Part shown: piece after piece, positions 19,888 to 33,667 of the stretch
How positions within the stretch are numbered: position 1 is the first letter of the stretch
Layout of the letters: the number at the start of each line of letters is the position of its first letter
From: an uncultured Alphaproteobacteria bacterium
Lineage (GTDB): Bacteria > Pseudomonadota > Alphaproteobacteria > Rhizobiales > Methyloligellaceae
Reading direction: 5' to 3'
DNA length: 64,000 bases
NCBI GenBank assembly: GCA_963783455.1
Contig: CAWANV010000009.1
Coordinates: 72,750-136,749, forward strand
Position numbers and translations under genes: made by a program
The notes under the pieces: model-generated
Database searches by the model: none
What the model saw: only the letters and a program-made list of their open reading frames with translations
What the model was told of the DNA's origin: nothing

Positions 19888-20760
19888 TCAGCAATTCGGG
19901 CCGCAGCTCGGCGTAATCGGCACATAGTCGTTCGGCGTGCGCACCGGCGGCGTCGATTGGGGCACCGCCGTCAGGCCGTTGATGAGCAGGCCAGTGGTGG
20001 CGCCGTCGTAATACCATTCCCTGATGAAGGGCTGGTCGGGGTAGGTGCCGGTCGGTTGGATGCCGTAATAATAGGGCCATCTCTGCCCCTTCCCGGTTTT
20101 GCCGGCGAGCTTGGTCTTCTGGCCCGACACGGCGGCAAGGATGGCATTGATGTCGGCCTGGTTTGCATCCTTCGCCGTCGCCGGGCCTGGCCCCGACACG
20201 ACAAACATCTGACTAGCCAAATTCAGCGTAGAGAGGAGTCCGTCGCGCTGAAGCGAGAGATATTTACCGAACACGAAGACGAACTTTGCTTGGTTCGGTC
20301 CGTTCACTTTCATCAGGGCGATGCCGCCGCGCACGGTGAGCGCGCCGGCCGGCGTCTTGATCGCGATGCCCTGCTCTTGCTTCGACAGCTTGCCGCCGAC
20401 GTAACGCAGCGCGCCCTTGGAGAAGCTCGCCACCAGCGAGCCTTTGCCGCTTGACGGGTTGTAGACGAATTTGTCGATGACGAGGCTCGAATCCGGGCCG
20501 ACCGTGAAGGTCGAGCCGTCGAGCAGGAGCACTTGCACCACGCCGGAGCCGGAAGTGTCGATGCGCTCGTTATAGACGACCGCCTTGCCGATTTTGAGGG
20601 TAGTGGTTTCGCCGCCGGGCGGCTGGCTGGTCGCCTCAGGCTTGACGGCTGCGGCGACGCCGACCTTTTCGGCGGCTAGCGCGCTGCCGAGGGCCAAAGG
20701 ACAGATGAAAACGGCCGCGCCAAGCGAGGCTGTGGCCCAAAATACTAGAGATGTGCGCAT
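19888..20760 (-). CDS. Secreted FecR-domain protein (short paralog)
   Basis: Signal peptide ending ALA-AEKVGVAAAV; FecR-like ERIDTSGSGVVQVLLLDGSTFTVGPDSSLVIDKFVYNP...IKTPAGALTVRG; ATG 20760 preferred (GGGG SD-like). Confidence 0.85.
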   Translation of the reverse strand: MRTSLVFWATASLGAAVFICPLALGSALAAEKVGVAAAVKPEATSQPPGGETTTLKIGKAVVYNERIDTSGSGVVQVLLLDGSTFTVGPDSSLVIDKFVYNPSSGKGSLVASFSKGALRYVGGKLSKQEQGIAIKTPAGALTVRGGIALMKVNGPNQAKFVFVFGKYLSLQRDGLLSTLNLASQMFVVSGPGPATAKDANQADINAILAAVSGQKTKLAGKTGKGQRWPYYYGIQPTGTYPDQPFIREWYYDGATTGLLINGLTAVPQSTPPVRTPNDYVPITPSCGPNC

Positions 20761-20837
20761 TGATCCCCGTCCCAAAAGTGACAGGGGAGATATGGGGTTA
20801 GGGGTGCCCGGCGACAAGGCTGCCTACAGGCGGCCGC

Positions 20838-23771
20838 CTAGGGCGTCACGTTGGTGCCACCAAAAATGCCGGTCGCTTTCCAGCTGGAATTGCCGACGCC
20901 GAAATTGCCGATCACGCCTTGCGGGATTGCGCGATACCCAGTTGATCCGACGAAGGAGCCATTGGCCGCTCCGATCAGGTGGTCCGAACCAGTCAGTACG
21001 CCGGCAAACTGGGCCTTGCCTGGCGCCAGCATCAGGCCAGAGAAGTCCTTGCCGTCGAAATCGCTGATGCTGAGCAGACCCGATCGCTTCCGGAAGTCCC
21101 AGCTCATGTCCATGTCGCCCGTCGCGGTATATTGCTGCCCGTTCGTAGCAACGGTGCCGATTGCGTCGCCTTTATAGGTAGCACCGCCCTGGATGGGCAT
21201 ATCCGAGGATGAAACGACCTTACCTCCAATCCACCAGCCGAGTTGGACGTCCTTGGTTGTTGCCTGATTGGAGTGGTCGTTAGAGGTGACTCTCGTCCCC
21301 CACGCGCCCCATTTCATGAAATCACAAGATTGGCAGAAGGCTCTCTTCTGCACTGGAGCGGGAGCCTCGGGGTTCTCACTGTCAGATGGCTCGATGGGGA
21401 ACAAAACCGCGTTCGCATTGATCGCATCGGCGCTGACCATGTAGCTCTGCACGTCCGGATCATTGTCGACATAGGTCTTCAGCTGGATGATTGGAATGCC
21501 AAAGGGGCCGCGCCTAGTCTCAAGATACTTCTCCGAGACGCTCGAGCCGCTTTCCGCTTCGATCGCGGCAAAAATCTTGTCGTCGATGAAGGCGGAGCGT
21601 TCTTCGCCGCCGAATTTGAGATTGTATTTTGGATTCTGCAGGAGCCCGTCGCCGAGATTGAGGGACGCCGTCATCGTATTGGTTTCGGCATCGAGCGAAA
21701 TGGAAACGTCGTTCGGCGATAAATTGACGAGCGTGGCCACGTTGCTGCTGCCGCGCTGTTGCGCCAAGCCCGCCGCGTAGCCCTTGAACGTCGCAGTGGT
21801 CTGCGCCAGCGGCTCTGCGATTGGCGCTCCCCCGACGCCGATATGGTAGGTCGCCCCGGACTGGTTCTCGACGGACGGGTTTACGGGGTTGAGCGGAGCG
21901 TCGCGGCCAATATTGTGCGTGCCCGTCGAATCGAACCCGATCACCAGGTTGGGATTGCTGCCCGGGGCGCCCATAAAGTGCGAGAGCGCACCAGTGGAAT
22001 CGGGACCAGCCAAGCTGGCGATGTCGCCAGTGAAGCTATAGGTCTGCGGGTTTGCCGCGCCAGTTAAGTCATAGGCGACCATGGACCCGCCACGTCTTTC
22101 GCCTGTCAGACCCGTTGTGGGATCCCATTCGCCCAGGGCGATGTTGATGAAGGTTTCGCGTTTGCTTGGGTCGGTGCCGACAAAGAAATTCGTTTGGAGC
22201 CAGACCGCACGGCTTGTATCCACCTCGTTGCTTCCCACAGGCGGCGGCGCGTCCTTCTCCAGCAGCATCAAGGATGAAATATTATACCTGCCGGCCGTTG
22301 TTGGGGACGAGGTTTCGGAGGCAAAGGGACCGAATGCGCCTGGCTGGGAGATGTCCTGGGTTAGTTGGAAGGTGTGCACCTTGCCGCTCGGCGTGTCGAA
22401 TGTGTAGCCGTCGCCGCCGATGATCATCATCGGATCATTGTCGTTCTCGGCAGGCACCAGAATTGGTCCTGTGTCCCCGGTCGTATTCCATTGGCCTGGG
22501 CGGATCTGGTAAGCGAAGAAACCGGGCTTCGCCACGGCGATCCCGACGAGATTGGTCGTCACGCCGCCCTGGACAACTTTTGCATCAGTGACCACGCAGA
22601 AGCCGTCGATGCAGGCGCCGCCAGGTGCATCGGTCTGGTTTGCCTCAAACCACGGGAAGTCGACCGAGGCATCGGAAACGACGTGCGCCTCTATAGTCTG
22701 GCAGTTTGGGTTGGTGCAATTGGCATCGATCAGCCCGGTCACCGTGCCAAACATCCGGCCATTCAGAACGCCAAAGGTCCAGAGGAAGTCGTCGCCATGC
22801 GGTCCGGCAGGGGCGTTGTCGGGATACTTGCCGCCGCCGAGAAGTCCGGACCCGTTGTCGGTGGTGTATTTGTTCGGCGTGTCAGGAAATGCCGTATAGA
22901 CCCCGGGCGAAGCCAATATGCGCACGTTTACTGGAATAGGGTCTGGAGGTGGCGGCGTGGTCGTGTCCGTGGTTTGCTGGTTCTGCTGCTTCTGAAGCGT
23001 GTCCTGGATCTGCGTCTGGGTTGCCTCATTGACCGTGTCGTCCGGGTCGGCGATGGTGTCGTTCTGAAGAGTCGTCGCCGGTCCCGTGCCGTCAGTGCTG
23101 GTGTTGCCTAGGCCGTTTGTGCTGCCATTGGTGAGAGCCGCCATGACGGCCTTGATGTCTTCGGGTCGCGTCGGTCTGATCGTGGGTGAGCCGCTTGTCA
23201 GGTCTAGCGTATAGCCCGGCTCGTAGACGCTGTACGTCTTCCCGCCCTTGCTCGTGAAGGTCATGGCGGTGCCATAGAGGAAAGACCAGATTTTCCCATT
23301 GCCCTGAGCCATGCCGCCGCGGATGGCGAGCGCGCCAGCCGGCGTGTTGACGGTGACGCCGTTCTCGTTCTTGGAGATCTTGCCGCCGACGAAGCGCGCC
23401 ACGCCCTTGGAGAAGGAGGCGACGATCTGGCCGGTCTGCTTCTTCGGGTCGTAGACGAATTTGTCGATGACGAGGTCGGAGCCTGGGCCGACGGTGAAGG
23501 TCGAGCCGTCGACGAGAAGCACCTGCACCAGGCCGCTCGCCGTTGTGTTGATGCGCTCGTTAAAGAAGATCGACTTGCCGATATTGAGCTGGCTCTGCGG
23601 CGATCCGGAAAGGCTCGAGAAGGCGTCGGGATTGACGGCGGCCGCCACGCCAACCTTGTCGGCCGCGGCAGGGCCGATGGCGGCGGCAAGGCCGAGGCAA
23701 AGGCCGAGAAGCGCCGCGGAGCTTGCGCCCCATGACCGTGCTTTAAGCCCTGATCGACTTGCCCCCATCAT
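20838..23771 (-). CDS. Large secreted protein: N-terminal FecR domain, T/Q/P linker, C-terminal TbpB/HphA-like beta-barrel(s)
   Basis: Signal peptide ending AAA-DKVGVAAAV; FecR-like domain; C-terminal MPIQGGATYKGDAIG...WDFRKRSG...GSFVG...GVIGNF...ATGIFGG matches the 8-stranded barrel pattern of Slam-dependent cargo. Confidence 0.8.
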   Translation of the reverse strand: MMGASRSGLKARSWGASSAALLGLCLGLAAAIGPAAADKVGVAAAVNPDAFSSLSGSPQSQLNIGKSIFFNERINTTASGLVQVLLVDGSTFTVGPGSDLVIDKFVYDPKKQTGQIVASFSKGVARFVGGKISKNENGVTVNTPAGALAIRGGMAQGNGKIWSFLYGTAMTFTSKGGKTYSVYEPGYTLDLTSGSPTIRPTRPEDIKAVMAALTNGSTNGLGNTSTDGTGPATTLQNDTIADPDDTVNEATQTQIQDTLQKQQNQQTTDTTTPPPPDPIPVNVRILASPGVYTAFPDTPNKYTTDNGSGLLGGGKYPDNAPAGPHGDDFLWTFGVLNGRMFGTVTGLIDANCTNPNCQTIEAHVVSDASVDFPWFEANQTDAPGGACIDGFCVVTDAKVVQGGVTTNLVGIAVAKPGFFAYQIRPGQWNTTGDTGPILVPAENDNDPMMIIGGDGYTFDTPSGKVHTFQLTQDISQPGAFGPFASETSSPTTAGRYNISSLMLLEKDAPPPVGSNEVDTSRAVWLQTNFFVGTDPSKRETFINIALGEWDPTTGLTGERRGGSMVAYDLTGAANPQTYSFTGDIASLAGPDSTGALSHFMGAPGSNPNLVIGFDSTGTHNIGRDAPLNPVNPSVENQSGATYHIGVGGAPIAEPLAQTTATFKGYAAGLAQQRGSSNVATLVNLSPNDVSISLDAETNTMTASLNLGDGLLQNPKYNLKFGGEERSAFIDDKIFAAIEAESGSSVSEKYLETRRGPFGIPIIQLKTYVDNDPDVQSYMVSADAINANAVLFPIEPSDSENPEAPAPVQKRAFCQSCDFMKWGAWGTRVTSNDHSNQATTKDVQLGWWIGGKVVSSSDMPIQGGATYKGDAIGTVATNGQQYTATGDMDMSWDFRKRSGLLSISDFDGKDFSGLMLAPGKAQFAGVLTGSDHLIGAANGSFVGSTGYRAIPQGVIGNFGVGNSSWKATGIFGGTNVTP

Positions 23772-23774
23772 CCC

Positions 23775-25148
23775 TCAGAACCTCTTCTGCACCCCGAGAA
23801 GAGCGGTCAAATCGTCGAACGCCCTTATATCATAGTTCGACGCCTGATCGCGATACTCGACCTGGGGCACCAGAGCCCAGGTTTCCGCCACCGGCACCAC
23901 CAAGGCCGTGCGGCCCCACCAGGTGGTATCCTCCTCCGCCTCGTTGGGATTGATGGTCGGATCGGGATCGTCATAGTCCCGGCGAATCACGCCGCCGCCG
24001 ACCTGCAAGGTCCAGGGATAGCGCGCCTGCCAAAGAGGATTGTTGAAGGTCCAGGCAAAGCCCCCCGAAAAGGCGACCTCCCAGTCGGCATAGAAGTCGG
24101 CTTTGGCGGCTTCGCGCTGGGCGTAGAGTTGCGTGGTCACCACGAAGGCCGGCGTCATGTAGTAGGAATAAGTAAAGCCGAAACGGGTCTGCGCCCCGTC
24201 GCGCTGCGAGTTGAACGGAAGATCGGTCGAGTTGTCGAACTCGCGCCAGCGCGTCTCAAGCCGCGCATCGAGAACGCTGCGCTCGGCGGCAAAGCTCAAG
24301 AGGCGCAAGCCGGCGCCGGGCGCGGTGAAATAAGGATCGTAGCCGAGATAAGCGAGGTCGCCGATGGCATAGACGAAGGCGCGCGTCTTATCCATGCCCC
24401 AGCGCTTCATGTTGAAGCTTGGGCCCACGGTGGCCTCGAAGAAGTCGAGGTCGATGTCTTGGAGCTCCTTGTCGAAATAGGCGGTGCTGTAGGCGAGTGC
24501 GTCGAACTCGATGCGGTCGCCTTGGCGCTTCAGGTCCCAGGAATAATGCAGCGTGCCGATATTGAGCGCGCTCCAGCCGGCGCGGCCGACCGATTGCTGA
24601 TCGAGCGTGAAGTCGATGCCGTTCAAGGTCACGCTCTGCGTGCCGGGACCAGCGTTGGCGTTGCTCTCCCAGCGGATCGCCGAGAAGATGGTGGCGGAGA
24701 AGGACGGCGGGTCGGCGGCAATGGCAAGCTGCTGGAGATAGAGGCGGATCTGCGCGGCGACCGAGGGCGGCACGCTCGGATTGGCAAGGGCCTGCGCGAA
24801 ATAGGAACGGGCCACCTCGTATGCGCCGAGGCGATAATAGAGGATGCCGAGCTCGAGCTGGAGCCGCGGCGTGTTGGGTGCATAGATCAACATGCGCTCG
24901 AGCGTGGAGACGGCGGCTTCATAGTCGCCGACTTGCGAAGAGAGCGTCGCATATTCGAAGGCGAGGTCGAGATCGTTCGGGCGCGCGATCATCTGCTGGA
25001 GCAGAGCTTCGCGGCGCGCCTCGACGTCAGGAGGCCCGAGCCGCTGCACGGCGACGGTCGTATCGCCGGCGGCAAAACTCGGCGTAGCCTCGCCCACGAC
25101 GAGACCGGCCACCGCAAGCGCGATCGCCCACTTCGTCCACCCCAGCAT
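23775..25148 (-). CDS. TPR + outer-membrane beta-barrel protein (Slam / type XI secretion, DUF560-like)
   Basis: Signal peptide; TPRs (GDYEAAVSTLERML...RLQLELGILYYRLGAYEVARSYF); WESNANAGP at the barrel start (compare the YDSN.N.GP motif of Slam); amphipathic strands; terminal Phe (GVQKRF). Confidence 0.8.
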   Translation of the reverse strand: MLGWTKWAIALAVAGLVVGEATPSFAAGDTTVAVQRLGPPDVEARREALLQQMIARPNDLDLAFEYATLSSQVGDYEAAVSTLERMLIYAPNTPRLQLELGILYYRLGAYEVARSYFAQALANPSVPPSVAAQIRLYLQQLAIAADPPSFSATIFSAIRWESNANAGPGTQSVTLNGIDFTLDQQSVGRAGWSALNIGTLHYSWDLKRQGDRIEFDALAYSTAYFDKELQDIDLDFFEATVGPSFNMKRWGMDKTRAFVYAIGDLAYLGYDPYFTAPGAGLRLLSFAAERSVLDARLETRWREFDNSTDLPFNSQRDGAQTRFGFTYSYYMTPAFVVTTQLYAQREAAKADFYADWEVAFSGGFAWTFNNPLWQARYPWTLQVGGGVIRRDYDDPDPTINPNEAEEDTTWWGRTALVVPVAETWALVPQVEYRDQASNYDIRAFDDLTALLGVQKRF

Positions 25149-25316
25149 CTAAGACCGCTCGGCCTTTCCGAGAGGCGCTTGCAGGTTGATTCCCGACAAC
25201 GCCGCCCCGTCCTCCAGGAACGTTAGCCAGTTAACCTTTGGCCAGCAAGTGCCGAAGCTCGTTTCTTTAGGTTTTTCAAAGGTCCTGTGGCCCATCGGGC
25301 ACGCGATTCTCATGCT

Positions 25317-25328
25317 ATGGTTAACCAT
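25317..25328. promoter_or_regulatory. Perfect palindrome ATGGTTAACCAT (two overlapping CtrA-type TTAACCAT 8-mers)
   Basis: Seen directly in the divergent intergenic region; another TTAACC at 25231. Confidence 0.45.
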
Positions 25329-26903
25329 GGGAGGGGCCGATTCCCGTCAGGCTGAGAGTCTTGGATTTCATGGGGCGGCCCCGACGCCTACACGCCGCCG
25401 CCGGCAACCGTAGAGCGCATCGAGACCCATGCCTCCATCGTCTTTCTCGCCGGCGCCTTCGCCTACAAGGTAAAACGGGCGGTCAAATACCCTTTTCTCG
25501 ATTTTTCGACGCTTAAGAAGCGGCATGAGGCTTGCCTGAACGAGCTCCGCGTCAATTTCCGCACGGCGCCTCAGCTTTATCTTGAGGTGGTCCCGGTAAC
25601 CATCGGAGACAGCGGTACCTTTCGCCTCGGCGGGGAGGGGCAGGCGGTCGAATGGGTGCTCCGCATGCGCCGATTCGACCAGGCGAAGCTCTACGACCGC
25701 ATGGCAGGCGAGGGGCGGCTTGGCTTGGCCTCGATGCCCCGTCTGGCGGAGGTCATCGCCGCGTTTCCATGATTCGGCCGACCGGGTGCTTGCGCCGGAC
25801 CAAGCCGTGCTGCCGCTCGAAGGCGTGCTCCGCGACAACGCGGAAGCCTTTGCCGCCAATGCGAACGTTGTTCCGGCGCGAGGCGGCGCGGGAGCTTGCG
25901 CGGCGCAAGCCGCGAGAGGCTCGCCGCACTCTCGCCCTTGCTTGAGGCGCGGGCGAGGGGAGGCTATGTGCGCCATTGCCACGGCGATCTCCACTTGCGC
26001 AACATCGTCGAGATCGATGGCTCCCCCGTCTTGTTCGACGCCATCGAGTTCGACGATCGGCTTGCCACGATCGACGTTCTCTACGATCTCGCCTTTCTGC
26101 TCATGGATCTCGGCAAGCGCGGGCTCGACGCCCCACGCCAACGCCGTGCTCAACGCCTATCTCGATGAAGAGGGCAGCACGGGCAATCTCATCGGACTTG
26201 CGACGCTGCCGCTCTTCCTCTCGATGCGGGCGACGATCAGAGCCAAGGTCGAGCTGTTGCGCGCGCGCATGGCGGGTCATGATCAAGCCGAAGCCGCGCG
26301 TGCGGAGGCGCGCGTTTATTTCGCGCTGGCCGAGAGATTTCTTGCGCCGGCCGCACCCGCGCCTCATCGCCATCGGTGGATTGTCGGGCAGCGGCAAGTC
26401 GGCGGTAGCCCGCGCCATCGCGCCCTCAATCGGCGCCTTTCCGGGTGCGGTGCATGTGCGGAGCGATGTCGAGCGCAAGCGCCTGTTCGGGGTCGCTCCG
26501 TCGGAACGGCTGCCGGCCAGCGCCTATGCGCCGGAGGTTTCCGATCGAGGTCTATGCCATGTGCCGCAAGCGCGCCCTCATGGCGCTCGAAGGCGGGCAG
26601 GCCGTGATCGTCGACGCCGTGCATGCAAAGCAAGAGGAGCGCGAGGCGCTTGCCGCGCTCGCGGCAGAGAAGCGCGTCCCGTTCACCGGGCTTTGGCTCG
26701 AAGCGCCGGCACAATTCATGCGGGACAGGATCGCCACCCGCACAGGCGATGTGTCGGACGCGACACCTGAGGTGGTCGATGTTCAACTCGGCTACGATAT
26801 CGGACCGCAAAGCTTCGAGGTGATCGATGCAAGCCTTCCGGTCGATCAGGTCGCGGCGTCTTGCCTCGAGCGCATCGGCGCGCAGCCCCGCGCGCCCCTC
26901 TAG
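25327..26903 (+). CDS. Bifunctional aminoglycoside-phosphotransferase-like / P-loop kinase (COG2187+COG0645, Rv2004c-like; several apparent frameshifts)
   Basis: VERIETHASIVFLAG..AYKVKRAV...DFST, RHCHGDLHLRNI, FDAIEF, GGLSGSGKS, RSDVERKRL and GDVSDAT across frames. Confidence 0.88.
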
Positions 26904-27023
26904 ATTCATGCTTTGCTAACGCTCTCTGGCCGACAGTCGGGCGAGGGCCGGCTGCGTCGATCTCGCGGCCTTAGCGGGGTCGTTCCGACGCCTCGTTAGA
27001 AGCCCTTTCGGGGGGTCGGGACG

Positions 27024-28143
27024 TTGCGTTTTGTGGGTCAGCTCAAGCCTGCGCGGCTTGCGGGCGGGCGAGGTGATGCGGGCTCGTTCGGCCCCGCACG
27101 CTTTGCCGTGCCGCTTCTGCTGACCGCCAGTCTCGCCTTTGGCCTCGCTGCTTGCAGCTCAGGGAGCGACAACGGCGAGAAGCTCGGCGAGCGCGTCATC
27201 CCGCTCGGCCAGCCGGTGCCCAAGGGCGGCGGCTCCTACCAGCTCGGCAAGCCCTATCAAGTCGCCGGCCTCTGGTACACGCCGCGGGAGGACCCAGGCT
27301 ACGACCGGGTCGGCAGCGCGTCCTGGTATGGCGAGCTGTTCCACGGGCGCCGCACCGCCAATGGCGAGATCTACGACATGGATCGGCTCTCGGCGGCGCA
27401 CCCGACCTTGCCGCTGCCGGTCTATGCGCGGGTGACCAATCTCAACAACGGCCGGTCCATCGTGGTCCGCATCAACGATCGAGGGCCTTACGCGCGCGAC
27501 CGGATCATCGATCTGTCGCGCCGCTCGGCTGAGCTGCTCGGCTTCCGCAATCACGGCACGGCGACCGTGCGCGTCAAATATCTCGGCCGCGCTCCCTTGA
27601 ACGGCGACGACAGCTACGAGCGGAGATATCTCGCAAGCCAGAGCTGGGTGCAGTTTGCAGCCAAAGGGAAATCGTCAAAGGGGAGGCGACGTGGGCAGCA
27701 TCGCCGATGAGCAGCACGCTGCCTGCCGGAGAATCCGGAGAATTTGGCCTTGCCATGGAACTTGCCATGGAAGGAGGCCGCGCCCAAGGGCGCCGGCTGC
27801 TCCAGCCGATCCGGCGCTGCTTGGCTGGCGAGCGACCGCGAAAGCGGCCGCGCTACCGGCACCTCAGGCCACAGGCTCCATCCCGCGCGAGGCAAGCCGA
27901 AAGCGCAGGCTAACGGGCCGGTCATCCAGGCGGGATCGTTCAAGAGCAAGGAGAACGCCGATCGAGCGCGCAACGTCGCTTTCCGCCATTGCGCCCGTCG
28001 ACGTGGCCCCGATCGCCGTCGGCGGGGACGTCTATTTCCGCGTCCGGGTCGGGCCTTTTTCGGATTTATCAGGGGCCGAAGCGGCGTTGGCCAAGGTGAC
28101 GAAGGCCGGCTATCAAGGCGCCAAGATGGTGGCGAAGAACTAG
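27024..28143 (+). CDS. rlpA: Septal ring lytic transglycosylase RlpA with SPOR domain (apparent frameshifts)
   Basis: Lipobox LAAC; ASWYG..FHGRRTANGE, AAHPTLPLP and RINDRGP motifs; C-terminal IQAGSF..ENA / RVRVGPF. Confidence 0.92.
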
Positions 28144-28257
28144 CGCGCGTCTTTTCGGCTACCGGGTTGATTTTTCCGCAAGAGCGCTTGATATTGGCTG
28201 AGTTCGGCTGCGAACAGCGGCCGTCATCATCCACTTCGATCCGACCCCGGTCAGCCC

Positions 28258-29465
28258 GTGTACGCCTCGCGCCTTGACAGATGGATCAAGATCGCAGCGG
28301 CAGGCTGCCGTTCTCGCGCTCGGCGCCGGCTCGGTCACGGCTACGGTCCGCGCCGCCGCTCCGCCAAGCGCCTTCGAGACCAAGGCGAAGCACGCCATCC
28401 TTATGGATGCCGACGCCAATCTCGTGCTGTTCGAGAAGGACGCCGATACGCTGGCCCCGCCGGCGAGCATGAGCAAGCTCATGACGCTCGCCATCGTGTT
28501 CCGCGAGCTGAAGGCAGGGCGGCTCAAGCTCGAGGACCAGTTCAAGGTGAGCGAGCACGCATGGCGGACCGGGGGAGCGCCTTCCGGCGGGTCGGCCATG
28601 TTCGCGCCGCTCAATACCATGGTGAGCGTGGACGATCTCATCCAGGGCATCACCGTCCAGTCGGGAAACGATGCCGCCATCATCCTCGCCGAAGGGATTG
28701 CCGGCAGCGAAGAAGCCTTTGCCAAACAGATGACCGAGTACGCGCCGAACCATCGGACTCGCGAAATCGACCTTCGTCAACGCGACCGGTCTGCCGGCCG
28801 AAGGCCATCTGATGACGCGCGCGCGAGCTCGCGATCCTCGCCCATTATCTCATCTACACTTACCCCGAGTACTATCACTTCTTCGGGCAGAAGGAGTTCA
28901 AGTACCGCGACAAGTTCGTGTTCCTTAATCGCAATCCGCTCATCGCTCTGGATCCTCGGCGTGGACGGACTGAAGACCGGATTCATCAAGGAATCGGGCT
29001 ACGGGCTGGTGGCGAGCGCCAAGCGCGGCGGCCAGCGGCTTCTCCTCGTCGTCGAACGGCCTCGAGTTCGGCGAAGGACCGCGAGGCCGAGGCGCGCAAG
29101 CTGCTCGACTGGGGTTTCAAGAGCTTCAAGCCCTTCAGGCTGTTCGACGAAGGCCAGAAGGTGAGCGACGCGCTCGTGTGGGGCGGCACCGCAGCACTAC
29201 GTGCCGCTTGTCGGCGACGGCAACATCAACATCATCCTGCCCGCGACCGCGACCGGCAAGGTCACGGCGTCGATCGTGTATGATGGGCCGATCAAGGCTC
29301 CCATCCGCAAAGGCGATCAGGTGGCGGTGCTGCAGAGTGACCTCGGCCGAATCCCAAGCGACCAACGACATCCCGCTTTATGCCGGCGACGACATCGACC
29401 AGAGCAACTTCGCCATGCGCGGATTGGATTCGTTGCTCGTGCTCGCCTTCGGCTGGCTGTTGTAG
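28258..29465 (+). CDS. dacA: D-alanyl-D-alanine carboxypeptidase (PBP5/6; several apparent frameshifts)
   Basis: PASMSKLMT (SxxK), SGND (SxN), DGLKTG, and C-terminal APIRKGD. Confidence 0.9.
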
Positions 29466-29477
29466 CCCGCTAACACA

Positions 29478-30129
29478 ATGCAGCGCGAAGCCGCCGAAAC
29501 CGGCAGATTCATCACATTCGAAGGCGGCGAGGGCTCCGGCAAGTCCACCCAGGCCGGCATTCTCGCCAACCGGCTGGCGCGCGCCGGCCGCAAGGTGCTC
29601 GCCACCCGCGAGCCCGGCGGCTCGCCGGCCGCCGAGGAGATCCGCGAGGCGCTGCTGTCGGGGCGCGTCTGGCAGTTCGGTCCCTTTGCCGAAGCCTTGC
29701 TGTTCGCGGTCGCGCGCGCCGACCATATCGAGAACGCGATCGGGCAGGCGCTGCTCGAAGGCAAATGGGTCGTGTGCGACCGCTTCCTCGATTCCACGCG
29801 CGCCTATCAAGGGGCGACGGCCGGCGTGCCGCGCGGGCTGATCAACGCCTTGGAGCGGCTCACGGTCGGCGGCCTGTTGCCCGACATCACCTTCGTTCTC
29901 GATATTCCGCCTGAGGAGGGGCTTGGCGCGCGCGGCCGAGCGGCGTAGCGGCAACGCGCCCGACCGCTTCGAGAGCCAGGAGCTCATGCTGCATGAGCGC
30001 GTGCGCAGGGCCTTTCTCGATATCGCCGAGGAGGAGCCGGACCGCTGCGTGGTCATCGACGCGAGCCAGCCCGAGGCCATGGTCGCCGAGGATGTGTGGG
30101 AGGTGGTCCTGCAGCGCTTAAGCCCATGA
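29478..30129 (+). CDS. tmk: Thymidylate kinase (apparent frameshift near 29925)
   Basis: FITFEGGEGSGKSTQ, TREPGG, CDRFLDST and DRFE motifs. Confidence 0.95.
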
Positions 30130-31236
30130 GCATGGCGGCGGAGCGCTCGCGCGCGGCGCTTAGCGAGCCCGATCGGCTCGACGGATTCTCGACGCCCCGC
30201 GAGGTGGATCGCCTGTTCGGCCATGAGGCGGCACTGAACGAATTCGCCGACGCGCTCGAAAGCGGCCGCATGCATCATGCCTGGCTGCTGGTCGGGCCGG
30301 AGGGCATCGGCAAGGCGACGCTTGCCTATCGCTTCGCGCGCTCGGTGCTCGCCGAAGGCGATGATGCTGTCGAGCGACGGACGCGACACCGGTGTTCCGC
30401 AAGGTGGCGGCGCTCTCGCACCCGAACCTTCTCCTCATCCGGCGCTCGTGGGTCGAGAAGTCGAAGCGCTATTCGCAATGGATCGGCGTCGACGAGGTGA
30501 GGCGGCTTAGGGCCTTTCTCGGCAATACGGCGGGCGAGGGGGGTTGGCGCGTCGTCATTGTCGACCGCGCCGACGAGCTGAACCAGAATGCGGCGAACGC
30601 GCTCCTGAAGGCGCTGGAAGAGCCGCCGTCCAAGACCTTGTTTCTCCTGATCTCGAGCGCCGAGGGACGGCTTCCCGTCACCATCCGCTCCCGCGCCCGG
30701 ACACTTCGTGTCACTGCCTTAGGAGAGGAGGATTTGGAAAGAGGCCGTGCGGGCGGCGCTCGCCCGCGACGAGCCACGAGGCCGATGCCAGGACGCTCAC
30801 CACCGCGCTGGCTTTGAGCCAGGGGAGCGTGCGCCGCGCGCTCGAGCTCGTCTCCAGCGACGGCATCGAGCTTTATGGCGAGATCGCCGCGGCCCTCGCC
30901 GCCCTGCCGGACATCGACGGGCCGCGCCTGCACCGTCAGGTCGAGCGGCTTGCCGGCGCCGCCGACACCGAGCGCTTCGACCTCTATCTTGCGCTCCTGC
31001 TTGGGCTCATCGAGCGCCTCATCCGCTTCACGGCGACCGGCGAGGGGGCGACGCAAGAGGAGCAGAAGCTCGCCAAGCGGCTCATTTCGCCTGCCAATCT
31101 CGCTGATTGGGCGGAAGCGTGGGAGGCGATTTCGGAGGCCAAGCGGGAGGCCTTCGCCCTCAATCTCGATCGCGGCCTCTTGCTGCTCGAGACCTGGTTC
31201 CGGCTGCAGCATCTGGCGCGGGAACATCCTGTTTAG
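30126..31236 (+). CDS. holB: DNA polymerase III subunit delta' (apparent frameshifts)
   Basis: HHAWLLVGPEGIGKATLA, NAANALLKALEEPP, TIRSR and NLDR motifs. Confidence 0.93.
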
Positions 31237-31290
31237 CGAGGAAAGCCAGCAAGCTTGCCCGCGGCCGCCGCCCAGGCTATTCCTGCCGCC

Positions 31291-32859
31291 ATGGCAGACA
31301 AGCGGCCCTATTACATCACCACCGCCATCTCCTATCCGAACGACGCGCCCCATATCGGCCATGCCTATGAGGCCGTGGCGACCGATGCGCTGGCGCGCTT
31401 CCGGCGGTTGCAGGGCCGCGACGTCTTCTTCCTGACCGGGACCGACGAGCACGGCATCAAGATGCTGCAGACGGCGAAAGCGCAAGGCATCACGCCGTCC
31501 GAGCTTGCCGACCGCAACACCCCCAAGTTCCGCGACATGGTCGCGCGTGCTGAACTGCTCCAACGACGATTTCATCCGTACGCGGGAGGAGCGCCACGAA
31601 CTGGCCTGCCAGGAGCTGTGGCGGCGCATGCAAGACGCGGGCGACATCTATCTCGACAAATATGCCGGCTGGTACTCGGTGCGCGACGAGGCCTATTACG
31701 ACGCAAGCGAGCTGAAGGAGGCGGCCGACGGGCGCAAGCTCTCGCCGCAAGGAACGCCGGTCGAATGGGTCGAGGAGGAGAGCTATTTCTTCCGCCTGTC
31801 GGCCTATCAGGACAGGCTGCTCGCCCATTACGCAGGCGCATCCCGAGTTCATCGGGCCCGATACGCGGGCGAACGAGGTGAAGAGCTTCGTGCGCGGCGG
31901 CCTCCAGGACCTCTCGATCTCGCGCACCACCTTCGACTGGGGCATTCCCGTGCCGGGCGACCCGAAGCACATCATGTATGTGTGGGTGGACGCGCTCACC
32001 AATTATCTCACCGGCGTCGGTTTTCCCGACGAGGCGTCAGCGACGTTCAAGCGCTACTGGCCGGCCGACGTGCATATCATCGGCAAGGACATCATCCGCT
32101 TTCACGCCGTCTATTGGCCGGCCTTCCTGATGTCGGCCGGCGTCGCCCTGCCCAAGCGAGTGTTCGGCCACGGCTTTCTCTATAACCGCGGGGAGAAGAT
32201 GTCGAAGTCGGTCGGCAATGTGGTCGATCCCTTCGTGCTGGTGAAGGATTACGGCGTCGACCCGCTCCGCTACTTCCTGTTGCGCGAGGTGCCGTTCGGC
32301 CAGGACGGCAATTACAGCCGCGAGGGCATCGTGCAGCGCATCAATGCCGACCTCGCCAACGATCTCGGCAATCTCGCCCAGCGCTCGCTGTCGATGATCG
32401 CCAAGAATTGCGGGGGCCGCGTGCCCAAGCCGGGCAGAGCTCACCGAGGCCGACCGGACCATTCTCGCGGCGGCCGACGGGGCGCTTCAGCGCGGGTCGA
32501 CCGAGGCCATCGACGATTTCGCCATTCACCGCGCGCTGGAAATCATCTGGGCGCTGGTCGCCGACGCCAATCGCTATTTCGCCGGCGAGGAGCCCTGGGC
32601 GCATAAGAAGACCAACCCCGAGAGGATGGGGACGATCCTCTATGTCACGGCTGAGGTCACGCGGCAGATCGCCATTCTGGTGCAGCCGGTCATGCCGGAA
32701 AGCGCGGGCAAGCTGCTCGATCAGCTCGGCGTGCCGGACGATGCACGCAATTTCGCCGCGCTTGGGCCAAAGGGAAGGCTTAAGCCCGGGACTGAATTGC
32801 CGCCGCCCAAGCCCGTGTTCCCGCGCCATGTCGAGGCGGAGGAAACCCCTGTAGCGTGA
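31291..32859 (+). CDS. metG: Methionine--tRNA ligase (apparent frameshifts)
   Basis: [40 protein letters not shown] and KMSKS motifs. Confidence 0.95.
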
Positions 32860-33667
32860 TGATTGTCGATAGCCACTGCCATCTCGATTTTCCCGAGCTT
32901 AGGTCCGAGCTCGATGCGGTGCTCGACGCGCGCTCGGGCAGCAGGCGTCGGGCTGATGGTGACGATTTCGACACGGGTGCGCCGCTTCAACGAGCTGCAA
33001 GCCATCGTCGAGGCCCATGACAACTGTGTTCTGCTCGGTCGGCACCCATCCCCACAACGCCGCCGAGGAGCCGGACATCATGGTGGAGGAGCTGGTCGAG
33101 CTCGCGCGCCATCCCAAAGTGGTGGCGATCGGCGAGGCGGGCCTCGACTATCACTACGACCACAGCCCGCGCGACATGCAGAAGAAGAGCTTCCGCACCC
33201 ATATCGCCGCCGCGCGGGAGACCGGCCTGCCGCTCGTCATCCACGCCCGCGACGCCGACGCCGACATCGCCCGCATGCTGGAGGAGGAGACGGCGAAGGG
33301 CGCGTTCCCCTTCGTGCTGCATTGCTTCACCAGCGGTCCCGATCTTGCGCGGCGGGGGCTTGCGCTCGGCGGCTATATCTCCTTCTCCGGCGTCATCACC
33401 TTCAAGAACGCGGAGCCCTTGCGCGACATCGCGCTTGCCGTGCCGTCTGACCGTCTCCTGGTCGAGACCGACGCGCCATACCTTGCGCCCGAGCCCATGC
33501 GCGGAAAGACCAATGAGCCGGCCTTCGTGGTGCATACCGCGGCGCGCCTTGCCGCTTTGCGCGGCGTGCGTGAGACCGAGATGGCGCGCATGACCACCGA
33601 GAACTTCTTCAGGCTGTTCAAGAAGGTGCCGCGCTCGTCCCTGAAGTCGCCGCAAAGCGCCGCATGA
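32859..33667 (+). CDS. tatD: TatD family DNase (apparent frameshifts)
   Basis: [29 protein letters not shown] and VETDAPYLAP motifs. Confidence 0.93.

Follow-up and report, generated by a model that had tools for sequence, protein, structure and literature searches.

What is a Slam-like outer-membrane channel doing in one operon with two secreted proteins that both carry FecR-like domains? The question is raised by three co-oriented genes at positions 19888-25148 of a 64,000-nucleotide stretch of DNA (the window) from an uncultured alphaproteobacterium of the Methyloligellaceae (assembly GCA_963783455.1, contig CAWANV010000009.1). We propose, with a probability of about 45%, that the operon is the outer arm of a trans-envelope cyclic AMP (cAMP) relay, the inner arm of which is an unlinked CHASE2 adenylate cyclase. 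This reading is based on the homology of the channel to Slam, the barrel predicted at the C-terminus of its cargo, the homology of the FecR-like domain to retention domains, the loss of a threonine from the FecR cleavage site and the linkage with CHASE2 genes in other families; from these we infer export, topology, binding and ligand. The three genes, with protein lengths in amino acids (aa), are:

23775..25148, minus strand: Slam/DUF560-like outer-membrane protein (the channel), 457 aa
20838..23771, minus strand: FecR-plus-barrel cargo-type protein, 977 aa
19888..20760, minus strand: FecR-only secreted paralog, 290 aa from the ATG at 20760

Open reading frame (ORF) calls and comparison with homologs confirm that this operon is real, intact and conserved. 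The channel and cargo genes are separated by 3 nt, and the cargo gene and that of the short paralog by 77 nt. Named homologs are from Methyloceanibacter, and the channel was found in 59 of the 101 Methyloligellaceae genomes searched. Of 19 top-scoring loci taken from relatives, 18 had the channel gene followed by one (8 loci) or two (10 loci) FecR-plus-barrel cargo genes, encoding proteins of ~540-1065 aa, and 11 of these 18 also had the short paralog.

The channel protein has a signal peptide, a tetratricopeptide repeat (TPR) region at residues ~47-126 and a barrel at residues ~147-457 that finishes with a terminal Phe. Pfam models match the TPRs at 47-126 and, weakly, the SlipAM family (PF04575) at 260-457, with 20.7 bits against a cut-off of 22 that is passed by 4 of 22 relatives. 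A barrel profile built from 33 homologs was aligned by HHalign with 12 strong SlipAM barrels, giving an end-to-end match with a probability of 99.3% (E 1.3e-20, 284 columns); control profiles, one reversed and five shuffled, reached at most 0.46%. By our reading, the hydrophobic alternation in the alignment suggests about 14 strands, and the HHalign match is collinear with SlipAM. A PDB sequence search with the channel profile returned TPR proteins only. As judged from its sequence, the protein is a divergent Slam/DUF560 homolog, and a search with its profile finds 1,674 clusters with E<=1e-30. NsrA, an outer-membrane protein of Sinorhizobium meliloti, is said to contain both FecR and TPR sequences; the best 150 channel matches included 6 longer proteins, and none of these was an NsrA-like fusion of FecR domain and channel. 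Three channel homologs (P0311, P0346 and P0386) have an N-terminal extension of ~170-190 aa that lacks a Pfam match and that we take to resemble AMIN.

The cargo protein can be divided as follows:

20838..23771, minus strand: entire cargo, with Sec-type signal without lipobox, FecR-like/retention domain, linker, beta-rich insert, and TbpB-like handle and 8-stranded barrel (from model and sequence)
23127..23663, minus strand: FecR-like domain, residues 37-215, with a PupR-like fold and its first half homologous to 5IX9
22938..23126, minus strand: low-complexity Thr/Gln/Asn/Gly/Pro linker, residues 216-278, predicted to be disordered
21828..22937, minus strand: beta-rich insert, residues 279-648, confined to cargos of the long class
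20841..21809, minus strand: TbpB C-lobe-like handle and 8-stranded barrel, residues 655-977 (predicted structure)

The structural model was obtained from a 120-row alignment, with a predicted local distance difference test (pLDDT) score of 84.8; a single-sequence fold (pLDDT 31.8) was discarded. In this model the C-terminal barrel has eight strands at 863-974. Residues 655-977 resemble the TbpB C-lobe 5kkx (Z 15.1, root-mean-square deviation (rmsd) 4.1, 198 residues aligned), residues 810-977 resemble the NHBA barrel 6cuj (Z 13.9, rmsd 2.1, 141 aligned), and residues 822-942 match the slam_lipo model NF041636 with E 6e-6, below that model's cut-off. The pair Cys813/Cys816 is invariant in 52 of 52 long cargos, and the barrel terminates 109 of 120 cargo homologs, of which 69 are under 700 aa and 39 are of 900 aa or more. 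An 8-stranded C-terminal barrel is the described hallmark of cargo of the type XI (type 11) secretion system (T11SS) (PMC8406197; bioRxiv 10.1101/2023.03.29.534853; here and below, papers are cited from those portions of their text that are open to search), and the modelled handle and barrel are thus predicted to mark the protein as type 11 cargo.

At the other end of the cargo, the FecR-like domain directly follows a signal peptide that reads as Sec-type; a lipobox-like motif occurs in 1 of the 120 homologs, and the protein itself has none. This domain is the most conserved part, with a median conservation over the 120 homologs of 74%, compared with 34-54% elsewhere. The linker that comes after it has pLDDT below 50 at residues 216-271, and we propose that these ~60 residues are a tether spanning the channel. 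The insert gives weak barrel-like structural matches (Z 5-6), and its profile has no similarity to that of the C-lobe (probability under 4%), leaving a bilobed, TbpB-like duplication unsupported. In one other genome (G048) an extra cargo copy without a channel gene is present, and the two copies (L039:8431-11310 and L040:9550-11349) are 96% identical over 877 nt of the FecR-coding part and have different passengers (959 and 599 aa), a pattern that suggests passenger exchange. A divergent channel/cargo pair at L060:6642-18589 has genes for Crp-HTH/TPR-S, TIR and STAND NTPase proteins on its flanks.

Where in the envelope would such a cargo come to rest? The answer depends on the FecR-like domain. 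FecR (PF04773) is matched just above its cut-off of 24 bits in both secreted proteins, at 73-153 in the cargo (24.5 bits) and at 67-149 in the short paralog (24.6 bits). Residues 66-216 of the cargo model superimpose on the cell-surface-signalling domain of PupR (6ovm; Z 13.3, rmsd 3.3, 134 aligned), and structure comparison also relates the domain to 5ix9, the retention domain of a repeats-in-toxin (RTX) adhesin (Z 8.6). The same entry is the sole significant PDB sequence match of the short paralog (E 1.1e-5), and a profile of the FecR-like domain matches it with E 6.9e-12 over positions 3-72 of ~180. The 5IX9 domain is a periplasmic plug that holds the adhesin MpIBP in the TolC pore (PMC5550230), and it served as a template for the LapA retention module (bioRxiv 10.1101/198937). 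Because the FecR-like domain is homologous to this retention domain, we suggest that the cargo is not released but remains tethered as an antenna. The first-pass annotation had already read the operon as a Slam-type translocon with FecR N-domains in both of its partners and a TbpB-type barrel at the end of the 977-aa ORF, and the comparisons above bear out each of these assignments.

In other genomes the same domain stands at the N-terminus of giant proteins, which range from 1,450 aa to more than 4,000 aa. All eight of the giants scanned match the LapA-type retention model NF033682 below its cut-off, as do the FecR-like proteins of the operon. One such protein, a 2,276-aa FecR-headed passenger, is encoded in a co-oriented run with TolC, a type 1 ATP-binding cassette (ABC) protein, HlyD and a CHASE2 cyclase (L112:5572-18930, genome G479); going by its genes, this run is the module's counterpart in type 1 secretion. 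Elsewhere (L087:7177-14155 and L105:8188-14909), giants with an N-terminal FecR-like domain that keeps Gly-Thr lie directly upstream of a CHASE2 cyclase.

E. coli FecR cleaves itself at a Gly-Thr pair, Gly181-Thr182 (PMC12036975). In the cargo its counterpart is:

23313..23318, minus strand: Gly152-Gly153, aligned with E. coli FecR Gly181-Thr182 (weak alignment, E 4e-4)

Gly-Gly occupies the cleavage position in both the cargo and the short paralog, and 116 of 120 homologs have GG there, with GC in 2 and GA in 2. In the sample from the order, none of the 41 domains fused to a barrel has Gly-Thr, compared with 25 of the 52 that are not; these numbers contain two duplicated loci as well as frameshift fragments that were counted as having no barrel. 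The domains without Thr form one branch of a tree from which the motif columns had been left out (88 rows, support 97/97). The idea that Thr loss is a general rule for barrel-fused cargo was rejected, the barrel-fused cargos of the distant lineages L148 and L163 retaining Gly-Thr. With the autocleavage site reading Gly-Gly, self-processing at this locus is unlikely, and the suggestion that these FecR domains are self-processing modules is not supported here; the loss of Thr is specific to the lineage.

If the antenna is tethered, what might listen to it? The genome has a single CHASE2 gene, encoding a 737-aa class III cyclase with its CHASE2 domain at residues ~25-354, on a different contig (C19) from that of the operon. 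A search for such a cyclase elsewhere in the genome had been suggested, and in other families it proved to be the usual neighbour. A survey of 300 genomes of the order gave 43 matches that span the channel barrel and lie outside the Methyloligellaceae; a CHASE2 gene lies no more than 10 kb away from at least 27 of these 43, which include kin and are thus non-independent, and for most of the 27 the distance is 0.5 kb or less. Among 20 loci from other orders or classes, a FecR-like gene stands beside the channel in 11 and a CHASE2 gene in 5, not all of the latter with a cyclase domain. Within the family, CHASE2 occurs in 98 of 101 genomes. The two FecR-like genes of the operon are the only ones found in its assembly (2.8 Mb, 74.6% complete), and members of the same Gly-Gly/Gly-Ala clade adjoin a cyclase in other families (L059, L062, L066, L068, L069, L071 and L089). 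At two of these loci, L069 and L071, a gene for a cyclic-nucleotide-gated ion channel lies between cargo and cyclase, and at L069 a cyclic-nucleotide (cNMP)-binding ABC transporter lies beyond these three genes. At five loci of one family that have no adjacent cyclase (L056, L058, L063, L064 and L065), a 5'-nucleotidase/metallophosphoesterase gene adjoins the channel gene.

The short paralog is a secreted protein with a FecR domain and a Pro-rich tail ending with a Cys pair, and is 45-46% identical to the cargo over ~200-220 residues; two Cys in the last 30 residues are found in 16 of 43 FecR ORFs of 240-470 aa. The short proteins of the family form their own clade (9 rows, support 100/88) with a conserved tail, which rules out a decayed fragment. 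Outside the family, all 36 of the channel-found loci that were read have a FecR-like gene (16 of these loci were chosen largely for a nearby CHASE2 gene); 17 of them have a barrel cargo, and in the other 19 short FecR forms are the only partner. What these loci all share is thus the channel together with a FecR domain, and the short protein resembles a minimal partner and is unlikely to be merely a decoy. Of the earlier description of this protein as 'adaptor or decoy', it is the second half that is weakened.

These parts can be joined into a mechanism. The cargo would cross the inner membrane by Sec, and its C-terminal barrel would then lead it through the Slam-like channel. Its folded N-terminal domain, unable to pass, would stay in the periplasm, as in the retention of RTX adhesins, with the linker lying inside the channel and the variable beta-rich domains displayed outside as antenna or adhesin. 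If something outside the cell bound or pulled the antenna, the FecR-like domain in the periplasm would move or be released, would contact the CHASE2 domain and would alter the cAMP signal passed to regulators of the Crp family; as the cleavage-site Thr has become Gly, the covalent connection between this domain and its antenna would persist. The 290-aa protein, as a FecR domain with a short tail, could be a minimal partner of both channel and cyclase, which either sets a baseline or senses a different cue. There is a precedent in S. meliloti, where NsrA is required for activation of CyaK and provides outer-membrane input to CHASE2 cyclases (PMC7529298, PMC13001267). The split trans-envelope device envisaged in the first-pass annotation is, as a prediction, supported. 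A bolder form of the idea, possible but doubtful, is that of stalled export, in which the FecR retention domain would keep an exchangeable antenna inside the Slam pore and also serve as the CHASE2 ligand; together with L112, this would be the same principle in two secretion systems. If it were true, CHASE2 sensors would read the FecR/retention domains of half-secreted proteins, giving a means of sensing surface contact or adhesion through cAMP.

The setting of the operon bears on how it may be regulated. Upstream of its first gene is one conserved element:

25286..25303, no strand: imperfect palindrome CGTG-N8-GCCACA, at a distance of 137 nt from that gene

It is kept in 16 of 17 aligned upstream regions and is likely to be a regulator site. 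Other conserved elements in 25190-25330 are TTAACCAT and CTTG...TAACGT. We presume that the upstream elements resemble Crp and CtrA sites; the spacing in the palindrome is 2 nt longer than in Crp or Clr boxes. A genome scan with the palindrome gave no clear regulon. Two further genes whose products look secreted (G000 C8:210464 and C8:768226) are preceded by similar palindromes, and a scan for sigma-70 consensus sequences found no promoter. The flanks carry housekeeping genes (Lon, Hsp20 and a lytic transglycosylase-family gene). Those upstream, at 25368-33450 of the window, are often split by single frameshifts, resembling an uncorrected long-read assembly; despite these frameshifted neighbours, the division of the operon into three genes is not an assembly artefact, because all three ORFs have full-length homologs. 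The absence from the neighbourhood of a TonB-dependent receptor, an extracytoplasmic-function (ECF) sigma factor and a cyclase, noted at the outset, holds: the 74.6% complete assembly has no TonB-dependent receptor (PF00593), and no match to sigma70_r4_2 or a cyclase falls inside the window, every match in the assembly lying outside it. No type 1 secretion ABC, HlyD or TolC genes adjoin the operon.

Could this be no more than ordinary type 11 export, with the whole cargo secreted, its FecR-like domain serving as an extracellular effector or adhesin, and the operon connected with cAMP only as the output of a Crp-type regulator? We consider this rather unlikely. T11SS cargo does combine an N-terminal effector with a C-terminal targeting barrel, and cargo of the unlipidated, signal peptidase I (SPI) kind is released to the medium (PMC8406197); in S. 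meliloti the FecR-domain protein SMc02177 is a cAMP-Clr target that is dispensable for signal perception (PMC5498481). There are, in addition, weak NCBIfam matches to the Leptospira surface adhesin Lsa33, and the upstream palindrome has Crp-like half-sites. The pattern of conservation, however, with the FecR domain most conserved and the outer parts variable, is the opposite of that expected for an exposed effector, 19 of 36 distant loci keep channel and FecR gene but have no cargo barrel at all, and the longer spacing of the palindrome and its lack of a clear regulon speak against a simple Crp-type output. The retention homology, together with passengers that are variable and duplicated as in adhesin cassettes, would also suit a tethered adhesin that does not signal in this lineage, its FecR-like domain being only a plug and the cyclase, which is unlinked in the whole family and persists in genomes that yielded no channel, hearing other FecR-like proteins. 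This too we regard as unlikely, given that the 74.6% complete assembly has yielded no FecR-like genes beyond the two in the operon and that domains of the same clade lie beside the cyclase in other families. Least probable, and in our view improbable, is a scheme without export, in which the channel would serve in the outer membrane as receptor or scaffold, and the two FecR proteins would remain in the periplasm, docking on the TPRs and relaying to CHASE2. Many loci do have only short FecR proteins and no targeting barrel, and NsrA acts as an outer-membrane receptor (PMC7529298), but the cargo handle and barrel have residues that are invariant in all 52 long cargos, and the passengers vary as exposed domains should.

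Several observations nevertheless weigh against a cAMP relay with a tethered antenna as its outer arm. The channel itself remains under the PF04575 cut-off, the retention match covers the first ~70 of ~180 profile positions, and 4 of the 20 rows in the 5IX9 profile come from giant adhesin-like proteins. Thr loss is a single event in the sample, and since L148 and L163 keep Gly-Thr it is not required for the FecR-barrel architecture. Among the CHASE2 matches listed, 16 of the 43 distant barrel matches have none within 10 kb. In all 18 family genomes that have cyclase and channel on one contig, the two are 123-220 kb apart, and CHASE2 is retained in genomes where the channel was not found (98 of 101 compared with 59 of 101), the four of these that were examined having other, stand-alone FecR-like proteins; the coupling is thus not obligate. 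The released T11SS cargo and the dispensable SMc02177 cited above belong on the same side of the balance.

How much of this is new? In a literature search that covered few subscription papers, none was found that joins FecR with type XI secretion or DUF560, or CHASE2 with FecR and surface lipoprotein assembly, nor did FecR appear among the retention-module papers listed. A term search of the main text of a 2025 cargo survey (PMC12282271) did not find FecR; its supplement records 201 co-occurrences of FecR with cluster-1 T11SS, at a false discovery rate of 0.24, above the 0.10 threshold of that paper. The input to CHASE2 domains has been described as unknown (PMC5192318), and the verified T11SS cargos come from one host-associated cluster (PMC12282271). 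The family of 1,674 clusters offers a candidate CHASE2 ligand, and for Slam-type channels a candidate role in signalling. A sharp prediction of topology follows from the homology of FecR-like domains with adhesin retention domains, and the genetics should be simple, because genomes of this lineage have one CHASE2 cyclase each.

With the type 11 systems (Slam1-TbpB/fHbp, HsmA-HphA, HrpB-HrpC and NilB-NilC), the operon shares a TPR-plus-barrel protein (PF04575) that is homologous end to end and, encoded next to it, a protein that begins with a Sec signal and has a handle and 8-stranded barrel at its C-terminus. It differs in its divergent channel, which falls under the Pfam cut-off, in having no TonB-dependent receptor, and in a cargo whose FecR/retention domain and long linker place it outside the ten cargo groups of PMC12282271; moreover, loci of its type are often without barrel cargo and are linked to CHASE2 sensors. 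Also close is a Campylobacterota cluster of a CHASE2 adenylate cyclase, a phosphodiesterase, a FecR protein and a TPR protein, for which one pathway was proposed in 2022 (PMC9239204). Likened by gene type alone, it has the same three gene types as are found here, and the description of the system as undescribed is weakened to that extent; the searchable text of that paper does not call the TPR protein Slam-like or the FecR protein a T11SS cargo. Here, in contrast, the cyclase gene lies elsewhere, the operon has no phosphodiesterase gene beside it, and a short paralog is present. With NsrA and the S. meliloti cyclases CyaK, CyaD1 and CyaD2 (PMC7529298, PMC13001267) the operon would share outer-membrane input to CHASE2 adenylate cyclases; by description NsrA is a single large barrel protein, whereas here the task would be divided between channel and cargo.

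The retention modules of RTX adhesins (MpIBP RIN, 5IX9; LapA, NF033682) are related in sequence and fold over the first ~70 residues of the domain, and have the same order of N-terminal domain and flexible linker in a protein that, we infer, is led out by its C-terminus. Their export uses ABC/HlyD/TolC, compared with a Sec signal and Slam-like channel here, and they have half of a FecR-type domain where the operon proteins, which stay under the NF033682 cut-off, have all of it. The anti-sigma proteins FecR, PupR and FoxR share the periplasmic-domain fold, with the Gly-Thr position alignable, but the operon proteins lack both the cytoplasmic domain and the membrane anchor, their genes have neither an ECF sigma gene nor a TonB receptor gene as a neighbour, and Thr is replaced by Gly. 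The parts of the operon are thus of known kinds, in a gene cluster noted once in print among the searchable literature, and what is new at this locus is the unlinked cyclase, the tandem variable cargos, the conserved short paralog, the loss of Thr that would make the domain non-cleavable, and the link with retention domains.

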